Shown here one piece after another: positions 52,438 through 60,118 of a DNA stretch of 64,000 nucleotides. A model generated the notes under the pieces. The model had not been told where the DNA came from, made no database searches, and saw only the letters and a list, made by a program, of their open reading frames with translations. A program made the translations under genes and the position numbers. This DNA comes from Protoeuglena noctilucae. Lineage: Eukaryota. The DNA is taken from assembly GCA_958009085.1 (NCBI GenBank), contig OY253683.1:620001-684000 (forward strand), given 5' to 3'. How positions within the stretch are numbered: the stretch's first letter is position 1; each line of letters opens with the position of its first letter.

Positions 52438-54324
52438 ATGACGACCGAGGTCAAGAAGACGTCCCGCATCACCCTCCGCACGGGGTTCGGGCCGCAGCCG
52501 CTTTCGACCAAGTCGACGCAGCCGGCTTACGGCTTCGGCTCATCGGTCAGGGAGGCGTCGCTTCGGGTGAGTCTCGCTCCCGTCCCTGGGTGCTTTGCGC
52601 GGGGACGGCTTGGGTCCCCCCCAGCCAGCCCTAGCTGCGCGTCTCCTGGCCCGCCAGCGGTGCGAGCGCGTCCTGATTCTCAAATCAAGCTGTCGCATCG
52701 GCTGTCCGCTGCGCATTCGGCCCGTTCCGCGCCGTCGTGCCTCTTGCTCTCTCCCGGGCGCGAACCCGCCTCGCCAGGCCCCGAGGAGCACTCGCGGCCA
52801 GTTTACTGCCTCATTTCGGGCGCGTTGCTGCGTTTGTGAGGGCGGTGTACCTGCGATTTCGCCCCAGCGCGGCTCCCGCCGGCGTGGCCGAGAGCATGTA
52901 CTTCCGCCAGAGCAGCCTCGGCCTCAGTTGGCCCCGCACCACGTTGGCCGTGCGCCCGATCCATTACCTGCCCGAACCCCTCCGCGTGCCAGCTGCCCGA
53001 CCCCGCGCCTCCTCTCCAGACGCCCCCAGATCCCTGCATCCGTGCGCCACGGCCTCTCGCCCTCGTCCCCGCTCACCTTGCCCTCCCACCGTCGCATCCC
53101 CTCGACTGACGCTCGCTCTGTGCTCCGTGCGACTTGTGCGCGCCTCCCCCGCCCGCAGCAATACCTCTCGGCTGACCATGCCAAGGTCATGAGCGGCAAC
53201 AACTCGCAGGGCCCCATCTACCGCGTTCTCTCCGCCATGGGGCACCAATCTGAGTCTACCTATAAGACCGCGCCCATTAACTCCTTCGGTACCGAGCCCA
53301 GGCTCCCTAAGGTGAGCATTCGCGGATCGCACAGCGATGAGCATGCCCCTCGCCCCCCACAGCACATCACAAGTATCCTCGCGCCTCTTTCCGTGCAGCC
53401 CCCGAACCGCCAGGTCCCCGGCCCGGGCACTTACAAGGTCCCGTCGACCGCCTACGGGAGCCAGGTGGTGTCGGCCGTGTCCACGGCCCCCCGCATCGTG
53501 TTTGGGTCCTCTACGCGCGACCAGGCCATCAAGGTGTACCAGGAGGACGCGGACAAGGCGTTTTTCGGGCTCGGATCCCCCGGACCGTGCGCCTACAAGA
53601 CCACGTCCATGCTGGGGAGGCAGGTGGGTGTCGCCGGCATCATTGCGAGACGCGCTCTTGCGTCATGGGGGTTCCCGTGGCGTCCAGCGGCCGGGGACCG
53701 GGTGAGATGGGCAATTGGTGACTCCACCGCAGGTGCTGAGCAACAAGGAGAGCGCGGGCGCGGCCAAGATGGGCAAGAGCGACCGGTTCAAGTACGACCA
53801 CGTGCGGAGGGCGCTGGAGATCCCGGGGGCCGGGCAGTACTCGCAGACGGTGGCCGTGGGGAGGCAGTCCCTGTCGAACAAGCGCACCATGCCGGCGGCC
53901 AAGTTCGGCACCAGCACACGGGACCGCATGAAGAAGGTCTTCATCTCCCCGGTGAGGGACCACGAGGCGTGTCGTGATAGTGACAGCCAGGTGCATGGCC
54001 GTAGGACGACATCTGCGGCATCGTGGAATGGAGAAGAGCGTAGCACACGCCGCTATGGGGGGAGGGACTGGCTTGGCCGGGCAGCTGGGGTGGCCTGCCA
54101 TGCGTGTGCTGACGAGGTCTCTGGCACTGCACTCCTTGCAGGAGCACGAGAAGGGCACGTACGGGGAGAACTCCCCTGGCCCCGTCACGGCCGAGATGCA
54201 CAGCTCCATCGGCCGGCAGACGCTTTCCCGCAAGGCCACGAAGCCGTCCTGGGGCTTTGGGCATGCCGAGCGCAAGACGGTGCAGGTGTCCAACACGCCC
54301 GGGCCGGGCGCGTACTGGGCATGA
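52438..54324 (+). CDS. SHIPPO/ODF3-type PGP-repeat protein (axonemal microtubule-associated family)
   Basis: Repeated units VPGPGTY, SPGPCAY, IPGAGQY, SPGP, TPGPGAY, most followed by S.GxQ..S and P..xFG(T/S)xxR. Confidence 0.8.
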
Positions 54325-54869
54325 GTCAGGACGCAGATTCCTGCCTGGCCCGCATCTCTCTCTTCTATCGCCGCCTGGCCTCGTTGCTGCAGGCTGCGGC
54401 CGCATTGCCTGGCTGCCCGGATTGCCAGCCGCCCGCGCTTGTGTTCCGGTCGCATTTCTGCCGCGCCGGAGAGGGCTCGTTTGAACAGGGTAGCACGATG
54501 TCACGATACGCACAGCCCTGGAGGCTCCAGAGCTTGATGGGAAGTGCTGGCTCTCGGGATCACGAGGCGCAAAGAGGCCGATAGAAACGGAGCAACACGC
54601 GAGGTCCTATGTCTGGACTAGGTTAGGGTACGAGTGAGAAACTGCGCAAAGAGACAACAGATCCAGCCCCGCAACTGAAGCATGCGTCCTGCCGCCACAC
54701 ACGCGCGCCCGCAAAACGCGGGTGGGAAAGAACTTGCGGTGGGCGGTTGAGGGCCGGGCCTCAGGAACGAATCTATGACGAAGGGGACGACCGAAGGAGC
54801 AAGACTAGGTCGTCCAGCACACAAACGGTGACACGTGCTGTCAGCGTGGATCGTGGGGTGAGGGTGTCG

Positions 54870-57800
54870 TCATTCAAAGACCCTGGCCAACTCCTCCATC
54901 AAGCTGCGGGCAAAGCGAGGCGGGTGCTGAGGTCTCACTCGACCGCGAAGGGGATGGGTTAGTGTGAACGGCGATCAGGGGCGCTGTGCCAGGGCGACAT
55001 TCGCTCGATGGAGGTGCAAAGCCCGCTCGCGGCTCACCGCAGTCGCTCCCCGAACTTGTGGATGCCCAGGTGCGTGACGAGGACCTCATCGAACAGGCGC
55101 GGCTCCTGCGCCATGCGCCACAGCCCCGCCAGCGCCGTCCCGTTGATGGCGTGCTCTTGGAACGTGTCGAGGTGGTCTTGCAAGCCGCAACGCACCAGCC
55201 ACTCCGCCACCTCCTCCTCGTCCCACTGGTCCGCGCGTTCTGCGGCGCGGCAGGTGGGGTAGAGGAGATGAGATGGGGGTTGTGGATACGGTGCTTATCC
55301 AGACAACTGTGCACCCTTCTGTTCCGCCACGACCAGCCTGTCGATGTGATACAAGCTTAACATGTTCATCACCATCGTGGCCTTTCGCCTAACCAACGTC
55401 GACCATCCAAACACCCAATCCCAACCACGACCACAGCCGCCCCTCACCGATGTTGCCCTTAGACGCAGCCGTCGCGGAGATGAACTTCTCGGTCTGGCCC
55501 AGCAGAGCCACGTCCCCGATCTCCTTGAGGAGGCCCTGGACGCGCTGCGGCACCTCCCTGGTCGTGCTCATGTTGAAGTACAGCTTGGTGCCAAGCAGAG
55601 CGCCCAGCCATCCCGACGGGCGGTAGTCGGATTCCATGAGCAGCGGAATGATGCGCTTCTTCTGCTGAAAGGCGTACTCGGCCTCCGTGCGGCACGCCTG
55701 CGGTGGAGGGCGGCACGTGGGGTGGTGGGCTGGGTCAACAGCTCAGTATCGCAGGGCTTACCAGATACAACCATCCATGCCCCGCCCACCAGCCCCTTCC
55801 GCTCACCTGGGACTCCTTGTACCTCTTCGACACGCACACGAGCACCACGGCCGACCTCTCCACGGCGTCTGCCATGGCCTCGAGGGTAGACCCGGACATG
55901 CGATCCACGTCCATCCACGTCCGGTACCCCGCCTTGGCCAGCTGGTTGCGGACTAACAGAACCTGCGAGGGCGTACATGCAGATGAGGGGATTGAAACAG
56001 GCAGTTTCAGATTCCAATTGTAAGGTCTGCGCCCATGATTCATTCTTAACCTCTCCCCACTCAGGTCGTCACGACCCCACGCCCTGCGCCCGGCAGCGTC
56101 CCCCTCGCCTTCTGCTGCGATCCCCACTCGTACGACAGCATGATGTGCTCCTCCTTGGCCACCCCGTCCGACCCCGCGAACCGCCCCGCCTCGAACATCT
56201 GGTCCACGTCCTCCTTGAGCCCCAGCGTCCACAGCGCGCCCTGCGACGCAGTCATGACGACACCCATCAGGTGACTACACTAACTGTAGATTGAGAGGAT
56301 ACGTGACGTGCTTTCGACAGTATATGCAAGGTAGATCCGCAAGGACTGACTGGGCACCGGCAGCGCTCATCATGCAGCGTAGCGATGTGCGGCCCCGCGT
56401 CCCTTCCGGCAGCTCCCTTGGGCACTAACCGGACTGCCCCGCTTCATGCGAGGCGGGCAGCGGGGCAGCGAGCGTCGCTCTGGCCCCGATAAAAAAACCA
56501 GGGAGCGTGGGGTCGCGTCCCCCGGTGGATCGAAGGGGCAACGAAAGGGGACATGAGGAGTCAGGGTTGCATATGGAGAGACGCAAGAGGCACACAATAC
56601 CATACGCGCACCTCGACTGCCTATTTGATCCTCTCTGAACAGCAACCCAACAGCCCATGGCATCTCATGGCACCCACGCACCTTGGCTGCCTCCTTGGTC
56701 CTCCCCGACTCGGACGTGCGCCAGACCTCCCTCAGCGCATCCACGACCCCCGCAGACGCGATGATCTCCCGGCGGCACTTGTCGTTGAACGCCAAATTCC
56801 ACAGCGCCATGCAGACGTACCTGGCGGGACAGGGAGGCAAGTTACATAGGAACACAGAACACCTAGCCCTAACATGGAGTTTTGAATCACCGCTCGCCCC
56901 ATTAAAATCATCACGCACGTCTACTGCCACCGCCCCTCACCGCTGCGTCCGCTCGTTCTCGTGGTGCCGCACGAACAGCGCCTGGCCCAGCACCTCCACG
57001 CCCCCCGCCTCCAGCACCGTCTCCTTATTCGCATCTGGCACGCTCAGCGCCGACAGACCCATGGCCAGCTTCCACACCGTCCAGAACGTGCCGTACGCCA
57101 TCCGGCCCTCCACGGCCGCGCCCAGCACCTCGATGATCTGACAGACTAACGTCTGGTCCAACACGGGCACACCCTGCGCCCCCTCGTCCTTCCCCACCAG
57201 GCACGCCAGGGCCACGGCGCTGTTGATGCGCGTCGCGGGGTCCTGGGGGAACGAAGGGGGGTAAGCTTGCTTAGGTGCATTGAGCCAGGCAAAGGCATGC
57301 GTCGTGTGTGCATCTGAAGTGCTTCATCATGCCACCCACCCTCCGCAGCATGCCACCCTCCCTGGCTCCCGTGTACTACCACCGACAGCCTTACCTCTCC
57401 TCACATACGCCAATCACAGCCCCAAAATGCTCCCCGCTTCCCCCAGTCACCTTGTCCTCCAGCAGCTTCCCCAGCGCATCCACGGCCCCCTATGCTCCCC
57501 TCACAATCACCTTGTCCTCCGGCAGCTTCCCCAGCGCATCCACGGCCCCCTATGCTCCCCTCACAATCACCTTGTCCTCCAGCAGCTTCCCCAGCGCATC
57601 CACGGCCCCCATGGCCTTGAGTCGGTCGTGGAAGGCCTCCCCGTGGCACATGTTGCGCAGCACCCCGGCCGCGCGCGCCTTGACGGACCCCTGCGTGCCG
57701 TCCTGGAGCTCCCGAGAGTAGGCCGGGTCGTCGCTCATCATGAAGAAGACCAGGCGGGGGAGCACGCCCGACTCCATCACGTCGTTGTGCACCTCCCTGG

Positions 57801-58576
57801 GGACAGACAGGAGAGGAGAAGGTAAGGATGCAAAGTGCATTTGGAACATGCAAAGGATTCGAACTTAGTACCATCGATCTCTACCGAGTTAGGCTCGACG
57901 GCACAAAGGCACAGCAAAGGGTGGGTGCGGTGCGACACGCTAGGCTGCCATGCTGAGATGCATGCAACTCACTCATTGAATGCCACGACGGCGGAGAGGA
58001 GGAAGCAGAGCGCCGCGGTGAGCTCCACGGAGGGGTCCGAGGACAGCAGGTCCCTCGCCACCTGCAGGCCCCCGGCCTTGACCACGCTGGCGGCCGTGGC
58101 GGTGTTGCGGTAGCAGAGGATTTGGAGGGCCTCGAAGGGCGCGGGGTCCCGCATACGCGCACCGACGTCCAAAAGGCTCTGAATCGAGTCCGTCGCGAGC
58201 ACCTGCGGCGCCAGAGAGCACATGGCACATCGATCGCCAAACGCGCCCGCTGCCACGCGCCCGCCAAACGCTCCCAGCGGCCCTCGCCTTCCCCTGCATC
58301 TGCCTGATGTTCTTGGCTTTCGTGTTCACGGCCGTGCGGATCAGGTCGCGGATGTTGCGGGCCGCCTCGACCGTCTCGTCCCCGCCCGTGCTCCTCCCCG
58401 GCCGCAGGTACTTCGCCCAGTCCTCCAGCAGCGCGAGGTGGTCCACCTCTTCGAAGCGGTCAATCGCTGCGAGGGCCGGGCAGTGCGGTCCCCTTGGCGA
58501 CGTCCAGAAGGTGGGTCGAGCAAGCGCACGTGCCCGCGTCTCGTGTCCAAGGCGCTTTGAGCAGCCACTCACCCAT
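54870..58576 (-). CDS. ARM-repeat - TIR (TIR_2) - SAM domain protein (SARM1-like domain set, different order); 10 predicted exons; alternative upstream ATG at 58657
   Basis: ARM motifs (AAGVLRNMC, MALWNLAFND, KEAAK|GALWTL). TIR: HIMLSYEWGSQQK|VLLVRNQLAKAGYRTWMDVDRMSGSTLEAMADAVERSAVVLVCVSKRYKESQ|ACRTEAEYAFQQKKRIIPL...GWLG. SAM: WDEEEVAEWLVRCGL...FQEHAINGTAL...LGIHKFGERLR|LMEELARVFE*. Confidence 0.85.
57447..57610. repeat. 2.7 copies of a 60-bp tandem repeat comprising an exon 3' end plus donor site in the ARM-TIR-SAM gene
   Basis: tcaccttgtcctcc(a/g)gcagcttccccagcgcatccacggccccctatgctcccctcacaa repeated with period 60. Confidence 0.92.
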
Positions 58577-59222
58577 CTTGCCCTTGCGCTGGACATGTTT
58601 CGCGAGAGTGGACAGCTCTGGGATAGATTCCTGGGCCTGCAGGCAGCGGCGACGCATCTTCCCCGAGGCTTTGGCCGTGCGCGGTGCCCCCTGCCCAATC
58701 CACGAGGCGAGCGACGCATGACCTCGCGGCCGGGCCCCATACGCACCGTATGCTGTTGCTGGGGCTCGGCGTGATTCCGGACGGGCCGCCGGGCGCGAGG
58801 ACAGGGCGACTTGGAAAATCCTAACCCGGCACCGCGGGCGCCGAGCCCTCGGGCTACCAACGACATGTCCGCGGCTGCCTGGGCGCCGATCAAAACTATT
58901 TCAGCTGCCTACGTCTCTCGCGAATAGTTTCCCGCTCTCAGAAAGACTGAAAACGGCTCCGGATCACGAGCGTGTGCTATGTGGGAACAAACCCTTGCCC
59001 ATCACTTGCAGTGAATAATTGGACGCGCGATGCCTGGAATGCGGCTTCAACCGAGCCTCCCGCCACGCCTGACAGACGTCTAGGGTATCCGTCCACATGG
59101 TGCCAAGGGCGCGCTCAAATGCCCTCACTAGTCCCACCACAGACGATATACGGGCCAGCAGCAAGCCAGCGACGCTCCCAGGGCCAGGCCCAACTCTTCC
59201 GATGCACAGCAATCTCGACATG

Positions 59223-60118
59223 CTACCACATGGCGCGCTTGACCGGCTTGGCACCGATCCCCGTGTCGAGCAAGCCGTGCATGCTCGGCGGGGCGTCGGG
59301 GGAATCCTCCGGGCGGCCGTACATGTCCTGCTCTCAGCGAGGAAAACGTGCATGAAGACCCGCACTTGCAAGGGCTCGTGGGGATCCCCGGAGCTGTGCC
59401 AGCAGCTGCGAAGCGCTCGCCTGAGGGGTCATGACGCCCAACTGGCCAGAGATCTGCTCCAGGCCGAGCTTGGAGCTGGGCAGGCCGAAGCCCGGCAGGC
59501 GCATAGGCCGCGAAGCGATCTGCCGCTCAATGTCCAGACGTGCGGGCAGCGCAGAGCCGTACAGCTGCCTCATAGGCATGCCGCCCGATATCTCCAAGTC
59601 TTGCTGCAGGCAAAGGGGCATGTGGGCAGCACCGTGGCGTGGCGGCCGCGGGCTCAAAAGGGACCCGGCGTCAGTCTCACGGTCTGCGCCCCTCCGCCTG
59701 AGATCACGCGATACATCGACAGCGAAGGAGCGTCCCACGCACCTTGGCATGAGCCTTGACGATGTCCTCGACCGGGTGCGACGTGCTGGCCGACTCCTTG
59801 AGCGCGGGGAGGCCGTTGCGCAGGACGTCGACAGGCTCGCGGAGGAAAGGAAGCGACGGCGTCGATCCGCTGGTCCCGGTCGCCTGCGGTGGCGCGGGGG
59901 CGAACGGTCGAACCACGACGAGCGAAGAGGACTTGTAGGCGCCGCTGGCGGCCTCCTCCCGCACATCCTGTCACGCATACAACTCATTGGCCCACAGGCA
60001 TGATGGGGAAAGCCACGGGAGGGGCGCGCAGAGCGGCGCTAGACTGCATCGAGGCAATTGCGCTCGTGCGGCCAGGGACGCCGCGTCATGCCGCCCCATG
60101 GCCCCTTGCTCGCACCAT
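59223..60118 (-). CDS. POMP: Proteasome maturation factor POMP/Ump1; first exon probably ATG only (uncertain)
   Basis: DVLRNGL...SHPVE, MRQLYGSALPARLDIERQIAS...RLPG..LPSSKLGLEQISG, DMYGRPEDS. Confidence 0.82.

Follow-up and report, generated by a model that had tools for sequence, protein, structure and literature searches.

The window analysed here is a 64,000-nucleotide (nt) stretch of the Protoeuglena noctilucae contig OY253683.1 (assembly GCA_958009085.1, positions 620,001 to 684,000 of the forward strand), in which coordinates are counted from the first letter. Does its minus strand carry a single gene that joins ARM repeats, a TIR domain and a SAM domain, as an earlier note made from the sequence alone proposed, and if so, is the product a relative of SARM1 and what might it do? 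We find a minus-strand gene of 12 exons and 11 introns (transcript 54472-58999) that encodes an ARM-TIR_2-SAM protein and is an orthologue of a conserved eukaryotic family, TIR Clade 10. The family is already present in databases and in one atlas of eukaryotic TIR proteins, yet it is without experimental study as far as our literature searches show. We consider it reasonably probable that the protein is a regulated, glutamate-dependent NAD+-cleaving enzyme, with clustering by SAM, regulation by ARM and placement at an organelle.

A single spliced gene on the minus strand

The window is GC-rich (regional GC fraction 0.61-0.70), and its minus strand is a series of open frames from 54870 to ~58900. 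Splice sites were first set by eye and by script and then compared with RNA contigs over 53500-60000. The contigs came from three metatranscriptome runs and from run X3, whose type is not on record and which contains 0.99 of the stretch's sampled words. Two of them, record 18 of run X9 (2566 nt) and record 2 of run X10 (2433 nt), come from different samples of one study and each span 54472-58999 as a single spliced molecule. Because these contigs carry all exons in one molecule, the possibility of separate ARM and TIR-SAM transcripts, which the earlier note had named as fatal to its one-gene model, is largely refuted. The RNA support consists of assembled contigs rather than single molecules or reads, with the identical structure assembled twice; a chimeric assembly is formally possible, though the same structure was recovered in two samples. 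The gene is laid out as follows (UTR, untranslated region).

54472..58999, minus strand: transcript of 12 exons, from spliced RNA contigs that do not fix the true 5′ and 3′ ends
58747..58866, minus strand: exon 1, coding part, residues 1-40, a basic, acid-poor extension; from RNA contigs, with 5′ UTR to at least 58999
58573..58636, minus strand: exon 2, with ATG 58576-58574 (residue 61) four bases before the donor; joints 58466/58573 and 58635/58746
58288..58466, minus strand: exon 3, then an 85-nt GC-AG intron (58203-58287, donor GCGAGG); from contig arithmetic, the junction being collinear with orthologues
57973..58202, minus strand: exon 4, ARM region; X10 record 2 piece 57972-58201
57571..57796, minus strand: exon 5, ARM region with a Pfam Arm match; Pfam and RNA
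57447..57610, no strand: 60-bp tandem repeat, 2.7 copies, 98% matches; repeat scan and joint 57241/57570
56941..57242, minus strand: exon 6, ARM region; Pfam scan and RNA
56682..56820, minus strand: exon 7, ARM region with motif ALWNLAFNDKCRRE; RNA and orthologue alignment
56109..56240, minus strand: exon 8, end of ARM, linker and first TIR strand (HIMLSYEWG), then a 146-nt GC-AG intron (55963-56108); joint 55961/56108
55807..55962, minus strand: exon 9, mid TIR (WMDVDRMSGSTLEAMADAV to YKESQ); Pfam TIR_2 E=1.3e-8, RNA and family profile
55448..55697, minus strand: exon 10, remaining TIR from ACRTEAEYA, and linker; Pfam, RNA and family profile
55683..55685, minus strand: GAG codon of Glu521, the putative catalytic glutamate; alignment to TIR-1 and Cat1
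55038..55239, minus strand: exon 11, most of SAM; SAM_2 E=1e-7 and RNA
54870..54903, minus strand: exon 12, coding part, last SAM helix and TGA; RNA, with 3′ UTR to ~54472

Nine of the 11 introns are contig joints in all three RNA runs, except that joint 56239/56681 is found only in X9 and X10. None of these nine listed joints occurs in any X3 contig, and X3 contigs read through introns contiguously (record 10, 53819-57163). Introns 3 and 4, which lie beyond the nine listed joints, were derived from the RNA contigs' own coordinates: X9 record 18 has 699 nt between its pieces 58746-58999 and 56939-57241, equal to exons 2-5 (64+179+230+226), and X10 record 2 has a 230-nt piece at 57972-58201 that fits exon 4.

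The stop codon, TGA at 54872-54870, agrees with the gene end at 54870 given by the earlier note. The start given there, ATG 58576, has to be moved. It is the second in-frame ATG; upstream of it come the intron 58637-58746 and then exon sequence to at least 58999, and the reading frame is open up to ATG 58866-58864, the first ATG of the RNA contig, which gives a product of 677 rather than 617 amino acids (aa). The upstream start is favoured since the BLAST alignment to the orthologue from Pedinophyceae sp. YPF-701 begins at residue 22. An out-of-frame ATG at 58596-58594 in exon 2, 20 nt upstream of ATG 58576, would open a short overlapping frame if translation started from 58576, which is an additional point for the start at 58866. 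No stop codon interrupts the spliced open reading frame (ORF), and orthologues 674 and 676 aa long align with it over the whole length.

The minus-strand translation holds MLSYEWG, WMDVDRMSGSTLEAMADAV and YKESQACRTEAEYA, and every TIR motif quoted by the earlier note is present in it. Pfam scans, run on single exon-bearing ORF pieces, likewise bear out its description of ARM repeats, a complete TIR_2 domain and a C-terminal SAM domain. The TIR_2 match of exon 9 scores 35.7 bits (cutoff 28) and a second piece gives E=2.6e-3; SAM_2 is joined by SAM_1 (E=4e-6); and Arm is matched at E=2.4e-4 (21.5 bits, cutoff 20.6), with a second Arm match (E=0.004) falling below the cutoff. A family profile hidden Markov model (HMM) searched against the six-frame translation of the whole 64-kb window hit this gene only, at E=1.6e-32 (exon 10), 2.1e-27 and 6.8e-13, so that no second TIR-SAM was found in the window by this search. 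The 677 residues comprise a basic N-terminal extension of ~60 aa, ARM repeats at ~61-427, TIR at 452-578, a flexible linker and SAM at 603-677, and the family TIR motif MLSY..W...Q / W.D.D.M.GSTLEAM / YK.S..CR.EAEYA / GWLG is present.

Introns 3 and 8 are GC-AG introns, both with the donor AAG/GCGAGG. Intron 59327-59419 of the upstream UMP1 gene, also on the minus strand, reads GC-AG as well, and GC donors seem to be common in this genome. The 60-bp repeat unit takes in the last 40 nt of exon 5 with its GT donor and 20 nt at the start of the intron that follows, and the RNA splices at the first of the three tandemly duplicated exon 5 donors. Copies 2 and 3 are intronic, each being followed by an in-frame TAG, and X3 contigs are broken within this repeat stretch, where depth is doubled. 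A 19-bp GC-rich tandem repeat (55689-55730) lies over the boundary of intron 9 and exon 10. One high-depth X3 contig (445.8) joins 55219/55672 and 55700/56220, with a shorter side of just 23 nt; these joins are probably GC-rich short words common to other loci, not a variant of the gene.

Orthologues and distribution of the family

Relatives of full length that share the Pfam content were found with exon 10 as query, the best match being 76% identical; the window's own protein was absent from the database. Most further searches used the relatives P0001, P0003 and P0011 as query. The protein of Pedinophyceae sp. YPF-701 (P0003) retrieved 65 relatives, among which those with names come from Pedinophyceae sp. 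YPF-701 itself, Gonium, two Volvox species, Astrephomene, Chlamydomonas leiostraca, C. reinhardtii and Haematococcus, and more distant ones from nemerteans, sea urchin, ascidian and bivalve. The earlier note's remark that similar architectures occur in invertebrates therefore holds, since related proteins are found in marine animals. Orthologues listed under public names include Gonium pectorale GPECTOR_3g203 (P0019), Volvox carteri VOLCADRAFT_103968 (P0022) and C. reinhardtii XP_001689753.1, and the automatic UniRef name of the chlorophyte orthologues is 'ADP-ribosyl cyclase/cyclic ADP-ribose hydrolase'. Pfam scans of six relatives gave Arm/ARM_ARMC5, TIR_2 and SAM in four, and Arm and TIR_2 with no recognised SAM in the other two; TIR_2 matches on orthologues had E-values of 1e-19 to 6e-22.

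By BLAST, the window protein is nearest to P0001 (65% identity), then to P0002 and the Pedinophyceae protein (54%), and is 46-50% identical to six Volvocales proteins, the alignments to the named orthologues covering 497-664 columns. The chlorophyte orthologues have the same architecture and length, several share the basic type of N-terminus, and their TIR domains are 72-82% identical to that of the window protein (Pedinophyceae, Gonium, C. leiostraca), differences that amount only to species-level divergence. A FastTree phylogeny, which gives local support only (Shimodaira-Hasegawa-like) and in which several long branches among the animal rows were flagged, groups the window protein with P0001 (98), with P0002 (96) and with the Pedinophyceae protein (99). 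The neighbours of this group are a Volvocales clade (100) and one made up of 38 unnamed marine rows (100). Several of these 38 rows have N-termini that by eye are identical or nearly so to those of Micromonas commoda and Ostreococcus atlas rows, which identifies the marine clade as Mamiellophyceae and the window organism as another chlorophyte.

The family extends well beyond green algae. A phmmer search with the TIR-SAM fragment P0011 against 1.84 billion cluster representatives yielded 4506 matches at E<=1e-3, of which 2012 reach <=1e-10 and 258 reach <=1e-30. The best 150 yielded 138 new representatives at 50% identity, whose architecture was classed with family HMMs built in this analysis: the most frequent arrangement for this type of TIR is ARM-TIR-SAM (76 of 138), followed by TIR-SAM (24, with a median of 274 aa and mostly fragments), ARM-TIR (20), TIR only (16) and others (2).

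Rows and passages of a 2026 atlas of eukaryotic TIR proteins (PMC13142454) place the same proteins in its Clade_10. They list a Gonium protein of 590 aa with Arm, TIR and SAM_2, and a Volvox carteri protein of 996 aa with DFP, Arm, TIR and SAM_2. The Gonium row is P0019 and the Volvox row has the same sequence start as P0022. Clade_10 rows of the atlas include ARM/HEAT-TIR-SAM proteins of Physarum (many paralogues), Paramoeba and Vexillifera; 'Clade_10' has 408 word matches in its supplementary table, and its text describes clades 10-13 as eukaryote-only, common and uncharacterised (PMC13142454). Ostreococcus mediterraneus, O. tauri, Micromonas bravo, M. commoda and M. pusilla have exactly one row each in this table, the ARM-TIR-SAM protein, a count that is to be read with the possibility that the table is a down-sampled set (PMC13142454). 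Going by its taxa, the 'group 18' of Toshchakov and Neuwald, described there as lower metazoans plus seven chlorophyte TIRs (PMC7075850), may be the same family. The earlier note's picture of an ARM-TIR-SAM protein in an alga thus stands as regards a chlorophyte gene, while the architecture is not peculiar to one alga, being found in chlorophytes, Amoebozoa and marine animals.

The P0022 model of Volvox carteri has DFP (PF04127) before ARM-TIR-SAM, and unnamed rows are called 'phosphopantothenate-cysteine ligase'; some JGI names are based on this domain. The Volvox DFP-ARM-TIR-SAM looks like two adjacent gene models fused, not a true architecture.

The TIR glutamate and what the protein may do

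In TIR enzymes a conserved glutamate cleaves NAD+, and association between TIR domains is required for activity. The codon at 55685-55683, which the earlier note had singled out, is indeed GAG and encodes the Glu of A-C-R-T-E-A-E-Y-A, residue 521 of 677. Weak alignments (E 7e-4 to 0.04) set the family's 'rtE' over the 'hkE' of Caenorhabditis elegans TIR-1 and the 'wdE' of Cat1, in which these Glu residues are the catalytic ones. All aligned rows have the Glu in this column (65 of 65 and 70 of 70), as do 209 of 211 stored relatives, the exceptions being one T and one gap; CRTEAEYA is identical among the chlorophyte orthologues compared. An AlphaFold2 model of the relative P0011 (TIR-SAM, 241 aa, from a 70-row alignment) has a mean predicted local distance difference test score (pLDDT) of 85.6 and a disordered linker at 136-156, and places the Glu within helix 63-74 (alpha-C), immediately after strand 51-55. 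By the alignments Glu521 occupies the catalytic position, and these together with its place in helix alpha-C suggest that it would lie in the pocket, as the earlier note's reading requires.

The P0011 model was compared with solved TIR structures by Foldseek and VIA-align, with overall Z scores of 14-17 and root-mean-square deviations (rmsd) of 2.1-2.4 over 118-129 aligned residues, values that speak for the complete TIR domain first described and that include NAD+-cleaving TIRs. By VIA-align the rows are SPARTA TIR-APAZ (Z 16.9, rmsd 2.1, 127 aligned), Hydra TRR-2 (Z 16.6, rmsd 2.4, 118 aligned), human SARM1 (Z 15.6, rmsd 2.2, 121 aligned, 21% identity), MyD88 (Z 14.9), RUN1 (Z 14.3) and AbTir (Z 14.0). 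Since they are nearly tied, the model indicates a TIR fold that is not specifically SARM1-like. At the sequence level, a search of solved structures with a single TIR sequence gave marginal matches only; a 7-row TIR profile did slightly better (E=7e-4 for Cat1, 0.009 for a SEFIR protein, 0.011 for C. elegans TIR-1, 0.054 for RPS4 and 0.13 for human SARM1).

Compared domain by domain, TIR is the most constrained part of the window protein. Its identity to relatives is 82% (Pedinophyceae), 72-75% (Volvocales), 51-55% (Mamiellophyceae-type rows) and 50-55% (urchin, ascidian and nemertean), against 50%, 41-42%, 28-33% and 14-19% for ARM and 42%, 34-48%, 24-29% and 16-29% for SAM in the same order.

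SAM domains commonly self-associate, and ARM solenoids belong to a class that binds peptides or ligands. A near-invariant Glu in a highly conserved TIR, joined by a linker to SAM and preceded by ARM, leads us to propose that SAM would cluster the TIRs, that the clustered TIRs would cleave NAD+ through Glu521, and that the ARM solenoid may act as a regulatory or partner-binding module that restrains the enzyme or couples it to a cue. The output could conceivably be either NAD+ depletion or a signal molecule. The logic would be that of SARM1, built from unrelated or reshuffled parts. In a preprint that tested 154 TIRs, most of the Glu-bearing eukaryotic ones cleaved NAD+ to products of the cyclic ADP-ribose (cADPR) type in Escherichia coli, and the legend of its Figure 3 has 'ARM' among the domain abbreviations (bioRxiv 10.64898/2026.04.20.719644).

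The N-termini suggest where such an enzyme might sit. Of the 63 full-length members, 26 open with 35 residues that are basic and acid-poor (at most one D/E and at least five K/R), as compared with 9 of 1192 windows taken elsewhere in the same proteins. The 26 are the window protein and 25 rows of two green-algal clades, including Pedinophyceae, Astrephomene and C. leiostraca; the Ostreococcus tauri and Micromonas commoda atlas rows have N-termini of the same basic look. Another start, MG...S/T, a PROSITE pattern of the N-myristoylation type, occurs in 28 of 125 members (those starting with Met and having at least 300 aa before the TIR), one of the 28 being from sea urchin, versus a control of 20 among 2703 internal Met. 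The set counted for MGxxx[S/T] contains for example P0069, P0082, P0104, P0133, P0167 and P0203. These patterns suggest that lineage-specific N-terminal signals tether the family to membranes or organelles, and the extension of the window protein probably places it at or in an organelle.

Several points weigh against the proposal of a regulated, organelle-placed NAD+-cleaving enzyme. The structure models are those of the relatives P0011 and P0001, not of the window protein. The likeness to solved TIRs is remote, with the Cat1 match as the best and ~20% identity in structure alignments. The literature searched yielded no enzyme assay for any family member, nor any paper in which the accessions from Chlamydomonas, Volvox or Gonium are mentioned. 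The targeting idea comes from N-terminal composition alone, and 37 of the 63 full-length members fail the presequence criterion. Finally, some Glu-bearing TIRs are inactive, or act without the Glu, according to a passage on TirD (PMC13142454).

A wider form of the proposal, which we regard as possible but would not expect to hold in full, makes the family an ancient pan-eukaryotic NAD+-cleaving ARM-TIR-SAM switch of Amoebozoa, green algae and animals, independent of SARM1 with the same logic. It would be tethered by lineage-specific N-termini (a presequence for plastid or mitochondrion in chlorophytes, MG in many non-chlorophytes) and would be the sole TIR protein of Ostreococcus and Micromonas.

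The best-placed alternative, that the protein is an immune or antiviral death switch outside the NLR class, we judge rather unlikely. Here the ARM repeats would sense infection, for example by giant viruses, SAM would cluster the TIRs and NAD+ loss would kill the cell. TIR enzymes act in this way in bacteria, in plants and in SARM1, and the gene is expressed in natural marine communities. Physarum, with its many ARM-TIR-SAM paralogues, recalls expanded immune families, and in the haptophyte G. huxleyi TIR genes are reported as differentially expressed in virus infection and resistance (PMC12489294). Against this, we found no infection data for the family, and the best 10 of 131 papers matched for prasinovirus hosts make no mention of TIR domains. 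Evolution within chlorophytes is slow, and the gene is the only atlas row per species in Ostreococcus (2 species) and Micromonas (3), in a table that may be down-sampled; this slow, one-per-species pattern is unlike that of diversifying receptors. With one gene per listed Mamiellophyceae species and slow chlorophyte evolution, we lean towards a conserved stress, death or signalling switch over a diversifying or classical pathogen receptor.

It is improbable that the TIR is a non-catalytic scaffold for protein-protein assembly, as in MyD88 and the TLRs, with ARM and SAM recruiting partners. Many animal TIRs are adaptors, and the TIRs of MyD88 and Hydra TRR-2 are among the close structural matches (Z 14.9-16.6), but a pure scaffold leaves the near-invariance of C-R-T-E-A-E-Y from amoebae to animals unexplained. 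Scaffold-type TIRs of TLRs and interleukin receptors mostly have no Glu, according to passages of the preprint (bioRxiv 10.64898/2026.04.20.719644).

More improbable still is true homology with SARM1, in which the whole ARM/SAM/TIR protein would share ancestry and the domains would have been permuted. By sequence, SARM1 is matched through SAM (E ~1e-3 to 0.07) and weakly through TIR (E 0.011-0.13). For the TIR-SAM fragment P0011, SARM1 and TIR-1 are the top solved-structure matches, through SAM (E 0.02-0.07) and a faint stretch in the first TIR strands. Over 75 columns, this SAM and that of SARM1 show 31-32% identity, and Shank SAMs score alike. SARM1 clusters appear at feature scores of 0.91-0.92 in a protein atlas, and a Foldseek search with the model of the whole P0001 protein (pLDDT 86.5) puts full-length SARM1 in third place. 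That last match has a template modelling (TM) score of 0.24 and an rmsd of 23, however, which means common parts in another arrangement. Full-length P0003 finds SARM1 among solved structures through SAM only (E=1.1e-3); in the best 60 of its 128 sequence matches there is none to the SARM1 ARM, and its ARM region matches designed ARM proteins, importin-alpha, Vac8 and PF16/SPAG6. The ARM repeats of the family thus appear generic, with no SARM1 relationship detected in these matches. The TIR profile ranks Cat1 and the SEFIR protein over human SARM1, the structure scores of SPARTA and Hydra TRR-2 equal or exceed that of SARM1, the domain order and the number of SAMs differ, and the published phylogeny separates the orthologues (Clade 10) from SARM1 (Clade 8; PMC13142454).

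Least credible of all is an artefact of the gene model, either adjacent ARM and TIR-SAM genes read as one or a pseudogene: the short TIR-SAM-only database entries that might suggest it (P0011, P0013) come from ~1 kb contigs, and against the reliance on assembled contigs stand the recovery of the same full-length spliced contig from two samples, the uninterrupted ORF and the collinear full-length orthologues.

Bacteria, plants and animals alike use TIR enzymes in immunity and programmed death, and the locus provides an RNA-verified gene model for one unstudied eukaryotic TIR clade. The gene is an orthologue of publicly listed proteins, a solid finding and not a new kind of protein. Its family couples a strongly conserved TIR (half of the residues identical between alga and sea urchin) to SAM and ARM. 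Should the protein prove to be an active enzyme tethered to an organelle or membrane, the function of Clade 10 could be approached through Ostreococcus, Micromonas and Chlamydomonas, whose single-copy genes would be a tractable starting point. If the protein is the only TIR protein of Ostreococcus and Micromonas, these tiny transformable algae would be a minimal system for the role of a TIR enzyme without other TIR signalling.

The neighbouring genes, one with SHIPPO (sperm-tail PG-rich) repeats and one for the proteasome maturation factor UMP1, offer no functional lead.

52571-54490, plus strand: spliced SHIPPO-repeat gene, downstream and convergent, from RNA contigs; the 3′ ends lie ~20 nt apart
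~59035-60038, minus strand: UMP1 gene, upstream, ending ~35 nt upstream of the RNA contig of the TIR gene

Comparison with known TIR systems

In a plant-type TIR-NLR (TNL), an NB-ARC/STAND ATPase and LRRs adjoin the TIR, whereas the window gene has neither: in Pfam scans of the window pieces and of 16 relatives, neither an NB-ARC nor an LRR family was matched.

One TIR of Chlamydomonas reinhardtii makes 3′cADPR; its Glu is numbered E264, and it is placed together with dinoflagellate, chytrid, thraustochytrid, haptophyte and bacterial SLOG-linked TIRs (bioRxiv 10.64898/2026.04.20.719644). Like the window protein it is green-algal and has the catalytic-type Glu, and it is shown to be active. In the 496-aa model of the ARM-TIR-SAM orthologue of Chlamydomonas the Glu is residue 337, and this protein groups with animal TIRs. 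Since the Glu number and the grouping differ, the 3′cADPR enzyme is most likely another protein.

SPARTA TIR-APAZ (short prokaryotic Argonaute) is the best structural match of the family and Cat1 the best sequence-profile match. Both are bacterial NAD+ degraders activated by oligomerisation, with other partner domains and ~20% identity, and the likeness is at the level of the fold only.

SARM1, an enzyme of nerve death, is the comparison that the earlier note drew. 'SARM1-like' is apt for the same three module types, with a Glu at the aligned position, a similar TIR fold and a similar SAM, and it does not hold for their arrangement or relationship. SARM1, dSarm and TIR-1 are animal NAD+ hydrolases of the order ARM-SAM-SAM-TIR, whose two SAMs form an octamer ring; the window protein is ARM-TIR-SAM with one SAM, an ARM region for which no SARM1 ARM appears among the sequence matches listed and a TIR of another clade. 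For the sensing of nicotinamide mononucleotide (NMN) and NAD+ by the SARM1 ARM, we found no evidence of a counterpart in the ARM-TIR-SAM family. SARM1 also has an N-terminal targeting-like segment, as the window protein does. It is described as conserved and typically one per genome in the part of the survey that concerns it (PMC7075850). In the atlas phylogeny, on which together with the profile ranking our placement relies, the SARM1 TIR belongs to Clade 8 within a bacterial lineage, whereas the Volvox and Gonium orthologues belong to Clade 10 (PMC13142454). The window protein is therefore not a SARM1 relative in the strict sense, and the resemblance is one of design, not of descent.

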